A stretch of 23,036 bases of DNA from Methanobacteriota archaeon (GCA_963787255.1 CAWBCJ010000022.1:1-23036); one strand, 5' to 3'; shown: positions 414-22,301, counted from the first letter of the stretch. The notes: generated by a model not told the origin, from the letters alone. A program made the numbers and translations.

Positions 414-511
414 CTATAGCGACCTTGTGGCTAAAAATTCGTTTCAGTTACTTATGTGTCTATTTTTGCTTAATTTTTTAAAATAAGCTTGTGTGAGTCT
501 TTATAATTATA
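414..511 (+). repeat. Element copy A: left end CTATAGCGACCTTGTGGCTAAAAA plus core motif TTGTGTGAGTCTTTATAATTATA
   Basis: 414-436 matches 5810-5833, 12797-12819 and 18890-18910. 489-511 matches 3004-3026 and 4709-4731; its first 17 bp match 22761-22777. Confidence 0.9.
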
Positions 512-561
512 ATTATAAATCTATCATGGTTATACATATATAATTGTTTTTATTTAAAGCG

Positions 562-643
562 AAAAACAGCACTAATTCTATGCATAATCTACTGCATTTA
601 TCAATAAAATGATCAAAGATTCGAAATGATGAATTATAGATTA
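562..643 (+). repeat. Dispersed non-coding repeat X, copy 1
   Basis: Ungapped manual alignment with 9742-9823 gives 68/82 identities. Confidence 0.85.
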
Positions 644-789
644 TAGGAATTGGTAAAAAGTTAATTTTTTTAATATGATCATTAGCTTGGAAATTATCCG
701 TTTTGTGAATTATTGTTGGACATTAACAGTGCTACTGCTCTAGCAAAAAACATGTAAATATAAGGGGCTATCAATAACGCATGTAAAAA

Positions 790-1935: not shown

Positions 1936-2222
1936 AATTTCTAATTTAGCAGTCGTAAATTGATTTTCTTGATACGTAGTTGATCTATAAAAAAATAATA
2001 TAAAATTAAATCGTGCTTCTGCAGTTACTTTATCCAACTTTTTTTCATCTCTCTAAGCATTAATTCTAATTCATTAATTTTTGCATTATTTAAGGTATCT
2101 ACCCCTTACTGAACAGCATGAAGTGTAAGGTATTTGGAATTAGCTAATTTACTACTTTTAATAGGGAGTCATCTAGTCATTTTTAAAATGCACGTTAAAA
2201 TATTCTTTAGATTCATTTTTTA

Positions 2223-2775: not shown

Positions 2776-2982
2776 ACGATCCGGGTAACATATATGGAAA
2801 TATTAAATAAATTGCTTATTTTTAGCTAATCTGGGATAATTACTAGCAATCAACGAATTTTAAGTCAATAGAGTGCATTTACGAGTTAAAGAAGTTGAAT
2901 TTGGATAAAATAACTGTTTAATTAATTTGATGCTTGTTAAAATAAAAATTTTAATTTTATTTGAAATTTTATTGCTTATTTT

Positions 2983-3281
2983 TGCTTTATTTTTAAAATC
3001 AGTTTGTGTGAGTCTTTATAATTATAGCTTCAAAAATGATACTATATAGTTTTGCATACTGAAAACTGTTTAGAAAATTCGAGAATTCCTAAAATAGGCT
3101 TTAGTATCTTGTATTTTACGTTATTAATAGTTTTAATGTCCGTTTATTTAATTGTCACTATATAAAATAATATTATATTTTATATTGTGTTAAAATTTTC
3201 TCTTTTTAGAACTGTTGTATTTCGCTAAAATTGTATTTTGGTGCTTGTTTTCGTGATTTTGATTTTTTTAGCAAGTTTAAA
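2983..3281 (+). repeat. Element copy B: ~300-bp subterminal region, right end lost
   Basis: Colinear with 4686-4985 and 22739-23036: TGCTTTATTTTTAAA, TTGTGTGAGTCTTTATA, AAAACTGTTT, ATATAAAATA-N6-TATTTTATAT (3160-3185), AAAATTTTCTCTT, TGATTTTGATTTT, AGCAAGTTTAAA. Confidence 0.92.
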
Positions 3282-3681
3282 TAAAGAATATTATAAAAGA
3301 GTTAGTATTCTCCTATTTTTTCTATTTTTTATTTTAGAGTTTTTGGTAGATTGCCTTTTGGGATATACCAAATGGGGCAGAAACATAAACTTCAATAAAA
3401 CCCTATAAAAGATTAACAGAATCTATGGAGTTCTCAAGAGGGAGGGTATGTTGGGCAGATGTGGAGTCGGCTACTTGAGAAGACGGTACTGGACTGAGTT
3501 CTGTATATTTTAAGGTTTTAGGTTACTTATGAGATTATATTTAATTTATCAGTTACTTTTATTATATAATCAGATGATTTAGGGACTAAAAAGAAAACTA
3601 TTTTATACTTAAACTGATTCAAGTGTAAGAAATTATTAAAAAAAAACATAAAATTATAAACATAAACCTATAGGAGATTTT

Positions 3682-4642: not shown

Positions 4643-5023
4643 AGTCAATTAATATATATTAAAAATTAATCTTAATTCCTAATAGTGCTTTATTTTTAAA
4701 ATTAGAGCTTGTGTGAGTCTTTATAATTATAGTTTCAGAAATGTTACTATTATAGTTTTTGTATACTTAAAACTGTTTTAGAAAATTAAGAATTTAAAAA
4801 TAGGTTTTATTGGGCTTTGGTTTTGTGTAATAACTGTTCTAATTTGCTTTTATAAGTATCCCTATATAAAATAATATTATATTTTATATTCGAGTTAAAA
4901 TTTTCTCTTTGTAACATATGTTAAATTAGCTAAAACTTTTATTAAGAGCTTATTTTCCTGATCGTGATTTTCTTTTAAGTTTAAAATAATAGCTTATTTA
5001 ATTCTTATAGTGGGTATGGCGAA
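4643..5023 (+). repeat. Element copy C: subterminal region ending in degenerate junction AATTCTTATA-gtggg-TATGGCGAA
   Basis: AGTCAATTAATATATATTAAAAATTA (4643) matches ~5874. 4686-4985 aligns with copies B and L. Palindrome at 4864-4889; junction at 5000-5023. Confidence 0.9.
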
Positions 5024-5809: not shown

Positions 5810-5999
5810 CTATAGCGACCATGTGGCTAAAAAGAGCGAGTTTAACTACGAAAAAATTATTTAAATTTTGTTTAGTCAATTAATGTATATTAAAAATTAG
5901 TTTTAGTTTTTAAAAATGCTCCATTTCGCCTTATCATGGTGTTTTTGGTGTGATTTTTTTCAGTTAGATTATTAAATAATTTTTTTTAAGTCGTTATAG
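5810..5999 (+). mobile_element. Element copy D: 190-bp cargo-less mini-element with inverted ends CTATAGCGAC…GTCGTTATAG
   Basis: Ends match at 9/10 positions as an inverted repeat. The interior contains pieces of the subterminal region. A new left end TGTAGCGAT (6005-6013) follows across the 6-bp spacer gtgcta (5999-6004). Confidence 0.75.
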
Positions 6000-6127
6000 T
6001 GCTATGTAGCGATCCTAGATGTAAGAGATAGTCGAATTAGCCAAATATTTCTTATGCTGGATATGGTGAAATATAATAAAAATGAATATAAATAAATAAA
6101 AATTGAAAAATGAAGGATATTTAAAAA

Positions 6128-6402: not shown

Positions 6403-6793
6403 TCTTTATAATTATAAATTTTATTGGGTTCTGCCATATATTCAATATTTATACTCTAAAAGACTCCAATTCTCCCAAATTTTAAAATACATATCCTAAC
6501 ATTAGCTACTTATTTTAAACTACTGTCCCATTTAATGCCTTAAAAAAACTAAAAACTTAAAAATAAGACTATTAAATCCATATTTTTGAATACAAACTGT
6601 TTAGGGTCAGTTTATTTAAGTTGTGATATAAAATAAGTATTATATTTTATATTAAATTGAAAATTTCTCTTTGTAACATATGTTATATTTAGTTAAAGCT
6701 TTTTTAAAGTGCTTATTTTCTTGATTTAGATTTTCTTAACATGTTAAAAATATGGCTGTTTTATGTCGTTATAGATGGGTAACGAAATATTTT
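6403..6793 (+). repeat. Element copy E: variant subterminal region (includes repeat Y, 6425-6494) and right end ATGTCGTTATAG
   Basis: 6626-6774 aligns with copies B and C. Right end at 6763-6774 is followed by GGTAACGAAATATTT. 6425-6494 resembles 10583-10654. Confidence 0.85.
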
Positions 6794-7752: not shown

Positions 7753-8047
7753 TATCAATCACCATTTATTACTATATATTAAATAATTAATAAGTATTGG
7801 TATAAGTATGAATAATTTAGAATATAAAAACTTAATTTAAAAATAATCAAACAGAACCCTTCAAACGCTCCAACTCCAACTGCATCTCAGAAACCACATC
7901 ACACAACTGACTATTCTAATCTTTCAATTCCAGATAATTCATCTTTAATTCTTTATAGTCAGAGAGGTAAATGGATTCTATTATGGATAAAATAGATAAA
8001 ATTAATGAAGTTTTCTTTAACTTTAATCCTGTCACTTATTAGAAAAA

Positions 8048-9549: not shown

Positions 9550-9741
9550 GAATATACTATTGTAAAAAATACTATTTATTTATGTTCCTAATTATTGTAA
9601 CGTGTAATCTCATCATTGCTAACTGTTTTCTTCTCAATAAAACAAAAAAAATATAATTAACAGAACTATTTAAATCCCTTTGCATATAAGAAACAATTAT
9701 GCTTCGACAGTAACTTTATCCAACTTCTTCCATTTTAGCCC

Positions 9742-12417: not shown

Positions 12418-12645
12418 ATTCTTTTATAGTTCATCATATTAATTAAATGAATTGATTTTCTTCTTATATTCCGTTTTTAGGGTTTTACTACATTTTGGGC
12501 ATAAATATATGAATGTGGAGGTGCTGTAAATCTATGTGTAAAATTTAAACTCCCCCCGTAGATATATTAAAGAATTACAAAATTAGCACTTAATACCTTT
12601 ATTATAGCATTTTAAATATTTTAAGCCGGTTTATTTTTTTTGTTA

Positions 12646-12830
12646 TGATATAAAATATATATATTATTTTATATTAAGGTAAAATTACGCCTTATTTAAA
12701 CCTGTAGATCTGGATAAGATTGTTTTTCCATGAGTATTATAATAATTATGATTTCTTTTTTTATCATGTTTTAAATATTAAGTCGTTATAGTTATGTATA
12801 ACGACCATGTGGCTAAAAATAGTCAAATTT
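12646..12830 (+). repeat. Element copy F: subterminal region, perfect junction AAGTCGTTATA-gttatg-TATAACGAC, and next left end CATGTGGCTAAAAATAGTC
   Basis: Perfect 9-bp inverted repeat (12782-12790 / 12797-12805) around a 6-bp spacer. Confidence 0.92.
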
Positions 12831-12971
12831 AATGATATAAAAACTAAACATTAAAAAAGAGATATAAAACTAACTTCTTGTTTGGAATATGGAACTGAAA
12901 AATGAAGATAATGCAAAAATATTGCAAACTGTGGTAAAAATTTAAAAAATAGGGGATCTAAAACCTAAGTT

Positions 12972-15615: not shown

Positions 15616-15663
15616 AAGTCGTTATAGCGCCCTATAGTGATATTGTGACTAAAATAGTCGATT
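15616..15663 (+). repeat. Element junction G: AAGTCGTTATA-gcgccc-TATAGTGAT-ATTGTGACTAAAATAGTCG
   Basis: Colinear with 12780-12830; 6-bp spacer differs. Confidence 0.88.
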
Positions 15664-15761
15664 TATATGAAATAGGAATAATAAATTAATTTATTCTTTA
15701 TATAACGTTTTAATGACATGTACACGAGCTTTTAGTGATGTTTAAAATACATTAATCTTAA

Positions 15762-16668: not shown

Positions 16669-16805
16669 AATATTATATTTTATATTGGGTTGAAACTTTC
16701 TCTACTTAAAACAAGTAAATTCTGGTTAAATCGCCTAATCATAGTTGTTTTCGCAATTTTGATTTTCTTAACAAGTTTGAAATAGAGTTATTTGAGTCGT
16801 TATAG
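16669..16805 (+). repeat. Element copy H: distal subterminal region and right end GAGTCGTTATAG
   Basis: AATATTATATTTTATATT…TTTTGATTTTCTTAACAAGTTT…GTCGTTATAG aligns with copies C and E. Confidence 0.88.
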
Positions 16806-17171: not shown

Positions 17172-17387
17172 TCATTGCTCTAACTCTATAGAGATACATT
17201 CCCAAGGTTGAGCTTCCGTATCAATAGTGGCGAATAAATCTTTTTCTACATCCTGGAATAAATCTTCACAACTGAATTTTAAATCTGCAGATTTTTTAAC
17301 AGAATATATTCTGCCTCTAGCACTTTTAACAATTACATCGCCCTCTCGACTTATGCCCAATACTATTTGTTTTATTTCTTTTGCCAT
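17172..17387 (-). CDS. Small conserved hypothetical protein
   Basis: MAKEIKQIVLGISREGDVIVKSARGRIYSVK…; ATG 17387 follows a GGAG RBS. Confidence 0.8.
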   Translation of the reverse strand: MAKEIKQIVLGISREGDVIVKSARGRIYSVKKSADLKFSCEDLFQDVEKDLFATIDTEAQPWECISIELEQ

Positions 17388-17514
17388 ATTGCTCAACTCC
17401 ATTAATTTAATCTTTTATTAATTGCTAAGAATATCTCTAAAACTAAAATATTTCCAATCTATATTTATTATACATCACATTATAAGTGCACTATTATTTT
17501 TTTTCAATTTATAA

Positions 17515-17580
17515 TATAATGACCGGCTAAATATATGTCGAGAATAACGAAATATTTCTTTATAGCGCTATTATTACGGA
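17515..17580 (+). repeat. Element left-end variant I with 36-bp block identical to 18913-18948
   Basis: TATAATGACC-GGCTAAA, then ATATGTCGAGAATAACGAAATATTTCTTTATAGCGC (17533-17568). Confidence 0.9.
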
Positions 17581-17658
17581 TTTTTAAGTATACTACTTTT
17601 TAATAAGAATTATTATATACTATCATAACCATAGTGGCTTAAAAGGGAAGAATTTCAA

Positions 17659-18889: not shown

Positions 18890-18960
18890 TATAGCGACCA
18901 TGTGGCTAAAGAATATGTCGAGAATAACGAAATATTTCTTTATAGCGCAATATGACGAAT
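18890..18960 (+). repeat. Element left end K plus 36-bp block and nested site TTCTTTATA-gcgcaa-TATGACGAA
   Basis: TATAGCGACCATGTGGCTAAA is identical to 5811-5831. 18913-18948 is identical to 17533-17568. Confidence 0.92.
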
Positions 18961-19666: not shown

Positions 19667-19797
19667 GACCTTAAAACTAAAATATTATAATGGCTTGGAT
19701 TTGCATGAGTTAAAAATATTTTTTCCATTTATCTCTTCTATAAATTCCCCATACACTCTTTAAATTTCATTTTATTGAAAAACTTCATTATATCGTT

Positions 19798-19917
19798 CTA
19801 TAACGATTTAATGAACTACTATTTTTAACTTGTTAAGAAAATTAAAATCAGGGAATGTTGGAACCTGTACTATTATTTAGCATAGTATGAACAAGCTAAA
19901 ATTAAGCTTTTTAGCCA
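19798..19917 (-). repeat. Element copy M in reverse orientation
   Basis: Minus strand reads TGGCTAAAAAG…TGATTTTAATTTTCTTAACAAGTTAAAAATAG…AAATCGTTATAG. Confidence 0.8.
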
Positions 19918-20025
19918 ATTAATTAATTTTTTTTCTTTTTTTCTTTTTTAAATACATCATTTTATATAGTATCAAAAATAAAAAGTCATTTAAGCCTTTT
20001 TTGGCTATATTTAGGACGTGATTAA

Positions 20026-20250
20026 ATGTTTGGAAATAATAATAGAAATAATAATAGAGAAAGTTCATCTCCTTTAAACGAAGGACAAGAATATGATGTT
20101 AAAATTGAAGATATGGGAAGAGATGGAGACGGAATTGCTAAAATTGAAGGTTTCGTAGTTTTTGTATCTGGAGCAAAAGTGGGCGATGAAGTTAAAATCA
20201 GAATTACTTCAACAAGAAGAAACTTCGCTTTTGCAGACATCGTAGAATAG
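20026..20250 (+). CDS. Single TRAM domain protein (archaeal RNA chaperone/cold-shock type)
   Basis: [46 protein letters not shown]…FAFADIVE. Confidence 0.95.
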
Positions 20251-20708
20251 TTTAAGTTAATTTTTAATGCTCATTATCTATGTTAATGCTTTAAATTATT
20301 ATTGACGATTATATTAAAGGTTTTTATTATAATTAAGATATTTTTAATCATTAAAACTAGTCATGAGCTTTTTAAAATTTAATTTTCATTTAAATTTATC
20401 TATTTTTTTTATTTTTTTTAAATTCAGTAATTAAATTTAATTAATTTTTATTGATTATATGAATTTTAGTTAAAAGTAATTCAAAAATTTTATGATCATC
20501 TGGTTGAGTTTGGAGTGTGTTCTACTTTTTATTTTACTATTCCAGTTAGAAATGAAGATGGTAGCTAAATTTTACTCTTAATTTACCTTATTTTTTCAAT
20601 TAAACCGTTCTTTTTGAATATTATCTTTAATAATAATATAAATATTGAACAATTTTATTTTCTGGGCATGAAAAGAATATCAATATTAATATGCCAATAT
20701 AAATTTCA

Positions 20709-22017: not shown

Positions 22018-22301
22018 GATTCAATAAAGCTGATAGACTCCTAATTGAGTTTATTAATGCCCAATTTTTTTTTAAAGTTAGATTAGATAAAAGAAAATAC
22101 AGAACCGAAAACAATTAAATTTATTGGCAGAAGAAACTTAGCCATACCCCCTTTTTTGCTTTAATAGCCATTGAAATAGCATTCATTTCTCCAAACATCA
22201 GTAATTATATCTTATTTGCTATTATTTGCAATTAAATCCAAATAAGCATTTATCCTGAATTATAAAAACAATAATTAAAAAGGAGGATACAAAAGTCTAC
22301 A

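Follow-up and report, generated by a model that had tools for sequence, protein, structure and literature searches.

Several described recombination systems offer points of comparison for the locus reported here. Cre acts on loxP, in which 13-bp arms flank an asymmetric 8-bp spacer. Tn916 and CTnDOT move by conservative transposition and join across non-identical coupling sequences of 6–7 bp. The attC sites of integrons carry boxes of the form RYYYAAC and GTTRRRY, form a hairpin and span 57–141 bp. For ICESt1 and ICESt3 of Streptococcus thermophilus, tandem accretion is reported, in which elements with an integrase and integrase-less cis-mobilisable elements (CIMEs) gather at one attachment site. 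To our knowledge, few mobile elements and no cassette system have been described in the Methanobacteriales. According to PMC2958812, which treats Thermococcales and Sulfolobales, not Methanobacteriales, archaeal dif sites have 11-bp arms, and a single dif per Thermococcales genome is predicted in the replication-termination region by way of conservation among relatives. Cassette arrays of the integron type, with attC and attI, are reported from archaeal metagenome-assembled genomes (PMC9668308).

The locus that we compare with these systems lies in the genome of a Methanobacteriota archaeon (GCA_963787255.1; G000 hereafter, with other G numbers denoting compared genomes). The window, meaning the whole stretch of DNA analyzed, is an entire 23-kb contig (C22; 23,036 nucleotides) of an assembly that comprises 2.47 Mb in 29 contigs, with 95% completeness and 4.6% contamination. 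Pseudomurein-binding repeats on a sister contig, together with matching genomes, place the organism in Methanobacterium. The window has a G+C content of 29%, versus ~33% genome-wide, and its first 5 kb are gene-poor. An alternative genetic code (table 4) was rejected, as the gene-poor stretches stay closed under it; since no frames open there, we take these stretches to be non-coding repeats. The accessory cargo of the window includes an MFS transporter, a CAAX protease, a hydrolase, a 2TM protein, and MarR, DUF4013, HEPN, GNAT and DUF5518 genes. Two further contigs, C9 and C18, carry blocks of the window at 91–99% identity, reordered and with insertions, deletions and one inversion; these shared blocks may be paralogous regions or co-assembled strain variants.

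Searches for other kinds of mobile or structural element in this setting were negative. No transposase domain was found among the scanned ORFs (13 on C22 and 50 on C9), and G000 has neither a serine recombinase nor a Y1 transposase; a single TnpB-like fragment of 78 aa lies on contig C1. No Rfam family exceeded its gathering threshold in the window. We likewise found no sign of tRNA anchoring, as the window has no tRNA and 15 related loci hold one unrelated tRNA-Ala. Two side observations concern the assembly. A stretch of ~160 nt with no obvious ORF (C18:4897-5056, C9:37950-38102) is absent from the window near 22230, where the flanks are near-identical; it may represent a gene for a small RNA or a short inserted sequence. 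The first 900 nt of contig C17 (C17:1-900, L027) have high G+C and Ala/Arg/Gly-rich frames, unlike the remaining genome, and are probably a chimeric or contaminant contig end.

The preliminary description of this DNA reported a perfect 9-6-9 palindrome with an asymmetric extension on one side, and both are present in the sequence. The palindrome reads GTCGTTATA (12782-12790), gttatg (12791-12796) and TATAACGAC (12797-12805), and is followed by CATGTGGCTAAAA. Its left arm belongs to the end of a non-coding repeat of ~330 nt (E330), which we term End A, and its right arm opens a second conserved motif, End B. The features that define the palindrome and its two sister junctions are as follows.

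12782..12805, plus strand: reported dyad (left arm 12782-12790, 6-bp spacer 12791-12796, right arm 12797-12805)
12780..12791, plus strand: 12-mer of End A, AAGTCGTTATAG, with which the conserved part of E330 ends
12797..12833, plus strand: End B motif, the right arm with its CATGTGGCTAAAAATAGTC... extension
5990..6040, plus strand: second junction (left arm 5990-5998, spacer 5999-6004, imperfect right arm 6005-6013)
15618..15668, plus strand: third junction (left arm 15618-15626, spacer 15627-15632, right arm 15633-15641, End B-like extension)

The two sister junctions had been described as equivalent to the dyad. This holds for the left arm, which is identical, and for the spacers, gtgcta (5999-6004) and gcgccc (15627-15632), but the right arms, TGTAGCGAT and TATAGTGAT, are imperfect, each being complementary to the left arm at 6 of 9 positions. 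The degenerate End B of the second junction runs to ~6040, and the third junction sits between the convergent ends of the MarR and DUF4013 genes. On contig C9, the orthologous junction has one additional base and therefore a 7-bp spacer. Each arm has a copy of a direct repeat, AAAAATAGT, ~10 bp to its outer side. No target-site duplication flanks any of the four units compared, whose flanks are non-identical. The dyad lies at the seam between neighboring gene modules.

Taken as a lone palindrome, the dyad is only mildly unusual. No other perfect 9-6-9 with 3 or more G/C in each arm exists in the window; when the window was simulated 300 times with a first-order Markov model, 8 runs contained one or more of this kind. 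Genome-wide, each spacer length from 0 to 12 is represented by 6 to 15 perfect palindromes with 9-nt arms, and length 6 does not stand out. The signal resides in the recurrence of these particular arms rather than in the palindrome as such: when up to 2 mismatches are allowed, the window contains 11 copies of the 12-mer AAGTCGTTATAG, where 2.3 are expected, and none of 100 shuffles reaches 11.

A recombination site with a spacer of constant length had been predicted to give a sharp 6-bp peak once junctions were collected, and this prediction was borne out, in a small sample of related copies. We assembled 17 non-redundant left-arm sites from G000 (at least 13) and G019, starting from 22 automatic finds, removing 9 without a recognizable E330 tail, adding 6 that the filter had missed and counting orthologous C22, C9, C18 and C25-C8 copies once. 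A right arm was called at 6 or more of 9 matches to TATARCGAC, for which the background is 1.9% per position. It lies exactly 6 bp away in 11 of the 17 End A sites, 5 bp away in one and 4 bp away in two; one site scores again at 14 bp, a secondary match to a site already counted at 6. The mean arm score is 5.9 at spacer 6, versus 1.8 to 3.0 at all other offsets from 0 to 15, and the reported dyad matches at all 9 positions. The nominal binomial P for 11 of 17 (~1e-15) overstates the significance, since related copies are not independent. The same layout recurs in a G005 copy whose left arm has an indel; this copy was left out of the count. Spacer sequences differ at every End A site, and conserved arms beside free spacers argue for constraint on the arms. 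The constant spacing could be inherited rather than selected, the sites being related copies.

This anatomy can be set against the two site types invoked at the outset. The locus resembles Xer/dif in having inverted arms, a 6-bp spacer (here at 11 of 17 sites) and a tyrosine recombinase as the presumed partner, and G000 carries a XerA-like gene (C26:35355-35879), but a role for XerA is unsupported. In contrast to dif, a single site with 11-bp arms, the arms here are 9–10 bp long and multi-copy, with at least 13 left-arm sites and 18 End B sites in G000, and the End B pattern is found in only part of the genus (13 of 22 other members); we conclude that this is not a dif-like site. Nor is the geometry of the lox type, the layout here being 9-6-9, and we treat the resemblance to loxP as coincidence.

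In E330, a T-rich tail (GATTTTGATTTTCTTAACAAGTTAAAAATAGTAG) is followed by ~7 variable bases and then by End A. The repeat occurs in 12 of 23 genus genomes and is multi-copy in G019, G006, G005 and G013; the complete chromosome of G019 holds 20 matches within ~65 kb. The copies and related End A sites of the window are listed below.

2969..3292, plus strand: full E330 copy
4671..5016, plus strand: full E330 copy, with an End A-like end at 5001-5009 and, after a 5-bp spacer, the right arm TATGGCGAA
6535..6781, plus strand: 5′-truncated E330 copy
6765..6790, plus strand: End A, then a 4-bp spacer, then TAACGAAAT (second box of End B)
12538..12784, plus strand: 5′-truncated E330 copy with T-rich tail and End A (nhmmer, profile positions 94-326, E 3.6e-17)
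16796..16804, plus strand: End A left arm beside an unrelated right-hand sequence of the TTTAAGAAG class
19798..19809, minus strand: End A at the outer edge of a 690-bp TRAM-gene segment inverted on C9
22728..23034, plus strand: E330 copy at the contig end

Copies of E330 are cut back to varying extents on their 5′ side and retain End A. At sites with End A only, the right sides are unrelated and conservation ends at the spacer; the right side of the TTTAAGAAG class also follows End A in G013. We ruled out a protein-coding role for E330, as six copies share no ORF, and a structured RNA in its 3′ half (including End A), for which RNAalifold predicts 0 pairs over 19 copies. The repeat contains an invariant TATA-like TTTTATATT and AT-only palindromes. 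One of these, itself a perfect 9-6-9 within a longer palindrome (3161-3184 and 4865-4888), lies beside TTTTATATT, and the two could form a bidirectional TATA element or an unwinding element. The TRAM segment (19797-20488, 690 bp) is inverted between C9 and C22, with one edge exactly at End A and the other at a short ATTTTTGAA repeat. A multicopy region of ~500 bp within it (19921-20407) was considered as a mobile element and rejected; it belongs to a TRAM-domain gene family, the gene here (20026-20250) being one of about seven paralogues in the genome.

End B is a motif of ~46 bp that opens with the right arm and continues with CATGTGGCTAAAAATAGTCGAGTTTAACGAA. The extension that had been suggested as a possible source of directionality is real, and it is the best-conserved part of the site. 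Several End B sites in the window stand apart from the three junctions.

415..449, plus strand: End B without left arm
5811..5845, plus strand: End B without left arm, 28 nt past the stop of a 2TM-domain gene
17172..17582: 76-aa gene (17172-17402, minus strand) with an End B-like site to its right (17490-17582, plus strand)
18890..18935, plus strand: End B variant without left arm, ~40 nt upstream of an opposite-strand GNAT gene

A strict End B pattern was detected in 14 of 41 genomes, comprising G000, 13 of 22 other genus members and none of 18 genomes outside the genus, and reversed-pattern controls gave 0 matches. An exact-pattern scan of a genome collection returned 25 loci, 13 of them in records labeled Methanobacterium or Methanobacteriaceae; the remaining 12 are bacterial records that, by inspection, have no conserved bases flanking the pattern. 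In a metagenome scan, 8 of 35 loci had the full End B context. Among 60 unique End B sites, the left arm is absent from 57, whose left sides are unrelated; it accompanies 3 of 18 sites within G000 and 0 of 42 outside it. The symmetric palindrome singled out in the preliminary description is therefore not the conserved unit.

The arrangement of End B sites is orderly. Matches by nhmmer (E ≤0.01) are co-oriented in G017 (14/14 in a 26-kb stretch) and G005 (4/4) and largely so in G020 (4/4 at one locus, 2/3 at the other), with about one gene per site in G005 and G020. The flanking genes face both ways, some sites lying between convergent ends and others between divergent starts, and the distance from End B to the nearest start codon ranges from ~40 to >350 nt. 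Co-oriented sites, about one gene per site and flanking genes in either direction argue for a function at the level of DNA over one at the level of genes, and speak against a promoter, operator or terminator of a simple kind. The 76-aa gene and its End B are common to G000, G005 and one metagenome contig, with homology ending just past End B, and in G020 the gene is present without End B. Neither an integrase remnant nor E330 lies near the G017 End B array, and End B was not found at the right boundary of the G017 island described below. On metagenome contig L077 (~620-700), two End B units stand in direct tandem with a period of ~33 nt. End B can accordingly be described as ~1.3 copies of a short repeat, with its second box (TTTAACGAA) starting the next unit.

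The proposed enzyme for such sites would be a tyrosine integrase. Neither C22 nor C9 has an integrase ORF; the window contains remnants, of which one was confirmed by alignment.

2028..2099, minus strand: frameshifted C-terminal integrase remnant, 15/19 identical to the C24 fragment (E 3e-8)

Two shorter remnants were recognized by eye near 7850-7900 and 9690-9735. G000 has four Phage_integrase matches, one of which is a 128-aa C-terminal fragment on contig C24; its G019 orthologue has a 326-codon reading with one internal stop and lies inside the E330 array of that genome. The family matches phrog_1 integrase and Pfam Phage_integrase, with weak XerA-like structure matches, and the array-associated integrase scores as a generic phage integrase type. 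Full-length members of 376 to 438 aa occur in other genus genomes. Contigs C97 of G013, C13 of G017 and C11 of G002 are among those with a full-length member. No intact integrase of this family was found in G000 (95% complete), and no relatives were confirmed on viral contigs.

Eroded C-terminal integrase remnants adjoin E330 copies, in the same orientation, in G000, G019, G005 and G006. They begin at residues 251–337 of 376 and retain the C terminus. An attachment site inside the integrase gene, as in SSV, was considered and rejected, since the remnant starts vary over this range with no fixed truncation point. Variable remnant starts, together with E330 copies that are cut at the 5′ side and keep End A, fit internal decay of elements whose ends persist. 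Loci with a full-length integrase carry dyads of the End A type, with 6-bp spacers, 3.4 to 6.5 kb away (G013, 5660; G017, 5405 and 5432), and the G017 dyads lie at the far edge of the intact-integrase island. The islands with intact integrases (G017 C13, L164 13151-17063; G013 C97, L163 7763-8623) hold SIR2-like and TIR-domain genes, typical cargo of anti-virus defense. A conserved ATTTTTAAATTAAGTTTTTATATTACTTT follows the integrase stop (window ~7800-7850; C24 ~12300; also in G019, G005 and G006) and is itself followed, after ~50–60 nt, by a gene for a small hydrophobic protein that may be a conserved companion of the integrase.

The integrase family has a preferred chromosomal neighborhood. 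A gene for an HrcA-like/CBS regulator is single-copy in 23 of 23 genus genomes (C24:10636-11514 in G000; L020, L170), and an integrase-family match lies within 5 kb upstream of it on the same strand in 11 of the 23 (G000, G004, G005, G006, G007 [weak], G011, G013, G015, G017, G019 and G021). By tblastn, an integrase is found within 1.5 kb of the gene in 4 of 21 genomes. In G019 and G006, E330 arrays lie within 5 kb of the gene on its integrase side; on that side, G018 has fragments of the 5′ end of E330. The region upstream of the HrcA-like gene is an integration hotspot. Moreover, a block of ~190 nt from the promoter region of this gene is duplicated on C24, and a further copy appears in the window.

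466..674, plus strand: att-type hybrid consisting of E330 left arm, TTTATAATTATA and a copy of the C24 block upstream of the HrcA-like gene

The sequence TTTATAATTATA, which lies near the 5′ end of E330 and ~300 nt from the dyad, occurs in three contexts. In the alignment, the copy beside the HrcA-like gene has chromosomal sequence on both sides; copies at C24 ~15,075 and in the window (455-700) are flanked by the E330 left arm at one end and by the chromosomal block at the other; and full E330 copies have element sequence on both sides. The alignment shows a textbook att-type switch at TTTATAATTATA. On C24, two copies of the TTTATAATTATA block ~3.5 kb apart, which we estimate to be roughly 90% identical over ~150 columns, bracket integrase-bearing DNA. 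On contig C97 of G013, two copies enclose a 7-kb element that encodes an intact integrase and carries rep-like genes, and an End A-type site (5660) is internal to this element, at a seam between backbone and a glycosyltransferase gene, after the rep-like genes and an AT-rich non-coding stretch of 330 nt. In terms of a lambda-type identical core, the spacers differ at End A/End B, and direct-repeat blocks are found at TTTATAATTATA. The crossover made by the integrase could thus fall at TTTATAATTATA instead of at the dyad.

Among the systems outlined above, two come closest. As in Tn916, imperfect inverted ends lie 6 bp apart in the joint, the flanks are unduplicated and a tyrosine integrase is associated; here, however, no circular intermediate and no Xis or conjugation genes were seen, the joints are chromosomal and lie between modules, and the integrase prefers one locus. 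With the S. thermophilus elements ICESt1 and ICESt3 the locus shares co-oriented end repeats, modules that mostly lack an integrase, eroded integrases and a hotspot beside a conserved gene. It differs from them in belonging to an archaeal methanogen, in targeting the region upstream of the HrcA-like gene rather than a gene 3′ end or tRNA, in having a 9-6-9 dyad with variable spacers rather than identical direct repeats, and in that End B arrays also occur away from the hotspot. By analogy, the joint would work most like a Tn916-type joint combined with tandem accretion, differing in host, target locus and site design.

We tentatively favor, at a little less than an even chance, a reading in which the palindrome is the core of a composite attachment-type joint between modules, within a tandem pile of decayed tyrosine-integrase elements and integrase-less cassettes. 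One module would have the left half (E330, T-rich tail and End A) as its conserved right end, and the module after it would have the right half (End B) as a conserved end. Two integrase subunits would occupy the inverted 9-bp arms, and strands would be exchanged at both borders of the 6-bp spacer, with the AAAAATAGT repeats and E330 serving as accessory or arm-type DNA. Exchange with weakly similar partners would leave half-sites (End A only or End B only), and a second insertion beside a resident end would re-form the full A|B joint. As spacers differ and no direct repeats flank the sites, either non-identical spacers would be tolerated or the sites may now be fossils. Integrase binding, the positions of cleavage and present-day activity are predictions made from sequence.

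What the sequences show directly is how the site is built, that its spacing is constant, that half-sites exist, that the sites are co-oriented and that an integrase family accompanies them. A recombinase site fits the 6-bp spacing, the free spacers, the half-sites, the unduplicated flanks and the tyrosine integrase. Comparison of C22 with C9 points the same way, in that the two contigs differ by module insertions and deletions and by one inversion, of which one edge falls exactly at End A. Against a composite joint, the two largest C22/C9 differences have breakpoints that do not coincide exactly with the spacer, and neither an excision product, a circular joint nor an empty site was observed. 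It is further weakened by the absence of the left arm from all 42 End B sites outside G000, so that most End B sites are not dyads; by the separate att-type switch at TTTATAATTATA, with End A of G013 internal to the direct repeats; and by the G017 End B arrays without integrase remnants, the 7-bp spacer on C9 and the lack of an intact integrase in G000. The earlier proposal of a homology-tolerant tyrosine recombinase therefore fares unevenly: the module seams, the 6-bp peak, the variable spacer and the integrase family speak for it, and the missing left arm at those 42 sites and the clearer switch at TTTATAATTATA speak against it.

The clarity of that switch is an argument for placing the crossover at the TTTATAATTATA block shared with the HrcA-like promoter region and regarding the dyad as a protein-binding element (for instance an operator, or a site used by a replication origin or an accessory factor) bordering the E330 control region. 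The alignment of TTTATAATTATA captures chromosome/chromosome, element/chromosome and element/element states; its direct repeats bracket integrase DNA on C24 and on C97 of G013, where End A is internal; and E330, with its invariant TTTTATATT, AT-only palindromes and no conserved RNA fold, would suit such a region. However, a binding element gives no reason for half-sites conserved exactly up to the spacer, leaves unexplained the End B arrays far from any E330 or integrase, and sits poorly with the junction at 15618 between convergent gene ends and with the lack of a fixed promoter geometry (~40 to >350 nt); we judge it somewhat unlikely. A different emphasis falls on End B alone, which may be an attC-like site used by some recombinase to stack single-gene cassettes, the A|B palindrome being incidental where an E330 cassette ends in an inverted form of the first 10 bp of End B. 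Arrays with a single gene for each co-oriented End B, the shared 76-aa gene with End B and its G020 counterpart without it, the conservation of 57 of 60 End B sites without a left arm and the tandem duplicate on L077 are all consistent with this. As in integrons, cassettes mostly hold a single gene, the site is lineage-specific and co-oriented, and many arrays lack an integrase, like CALINs. But cassette genes occur in both orientations, End B at ~46 bp is shorter than the range of attC and is conserved in sequence rather than structure, the integrase is of a generic phage type, and G017 End B arrays have no integrase beside them. By inspection of the 60 sites, no compensatory change is seen in the CGAC/GTCG or TTAAAC/GTTTAA stems. 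The arm boxes CTATAAC and GTTATAG each miss the attC consensus at one position. Certain copies of End B have GTTAAAC or GTTTAAC at their end, each a fit to one attC box, with no conserved paired partner. The dyad/End B is not a canonical attC, and the 6-bp dyad spacing at End A sites is left unexplained, so that this account, too, appears unlikely.

The remaining explanations are far weaker. If End A and End B were terminal inverted repeats of a DDE transposon or MITE, the palindrome would mark two elements end to end; End B and End A are indeed inverted copies of each other over their outer 10 bp (CTATARCGAC / GTCGYTATAG), and a geneless 190-bp unit (5811-5999) has both ends. Yet the four units have no target-site duplication, C22 and C9 have no transposase ORF, the AAAAATAGT repeats past the outer 10 bp are direct rather than inverted, and the copies are co-oriented, which is not expected of random transposition, making such an origin very improbable. 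An RNA or single-strand DNA hairpin, such as a terminator or processing signal, would profit from a possible perfect 9-bp stem and from the T-runs, like those of archaeal terminators, before End A. It is the least probable of the readings considered, since right arms are mostly imperfect with no compensating change in the left arm, neither Rfam nor RNAalifold (0 pairs, 19 E330 3′ halves) detects a fold, and one chromosomal orientation is kept whichever way the neighboring genes run.

Returning to the composite joint between modules, we speculate on a broader role that would combine it with cassette capture. Methanobacterium may possess a gene-capture platform, similar to an integron and built from other parts, in which End B would bound single-gene cassettes, E330/End A would act as docks, and a non-IntI integrase homed upstream of the HrcA-like gene would carry out 6-bp exchange without spacer identity. 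We consider this extension quite unlikely as it stands.

Within the titles and abstract openings of the literature searched, no such site is described in Methanobacterium. If it is a fossil, the locus is a decayed island of the ordinary kind whose repeat is unusually tidy. If it is active, it would provide a concrete site (9-6-9 plus End B), a candidate enzyme family and a defined chromosomal hotspot, all of which would be testable in the genus isolates M. oryzae DSM 11106 and Methanobacterium sp. ACI-7, and it might yield a tool for site-specific integration in methanogen genetics. An active system would also explain how accessory genes, including transporters, MarR/TetR-type regulators and GNAT, HEPN and SIR2/TIR-type genes, are shuffled in soil and wetland methanogens.
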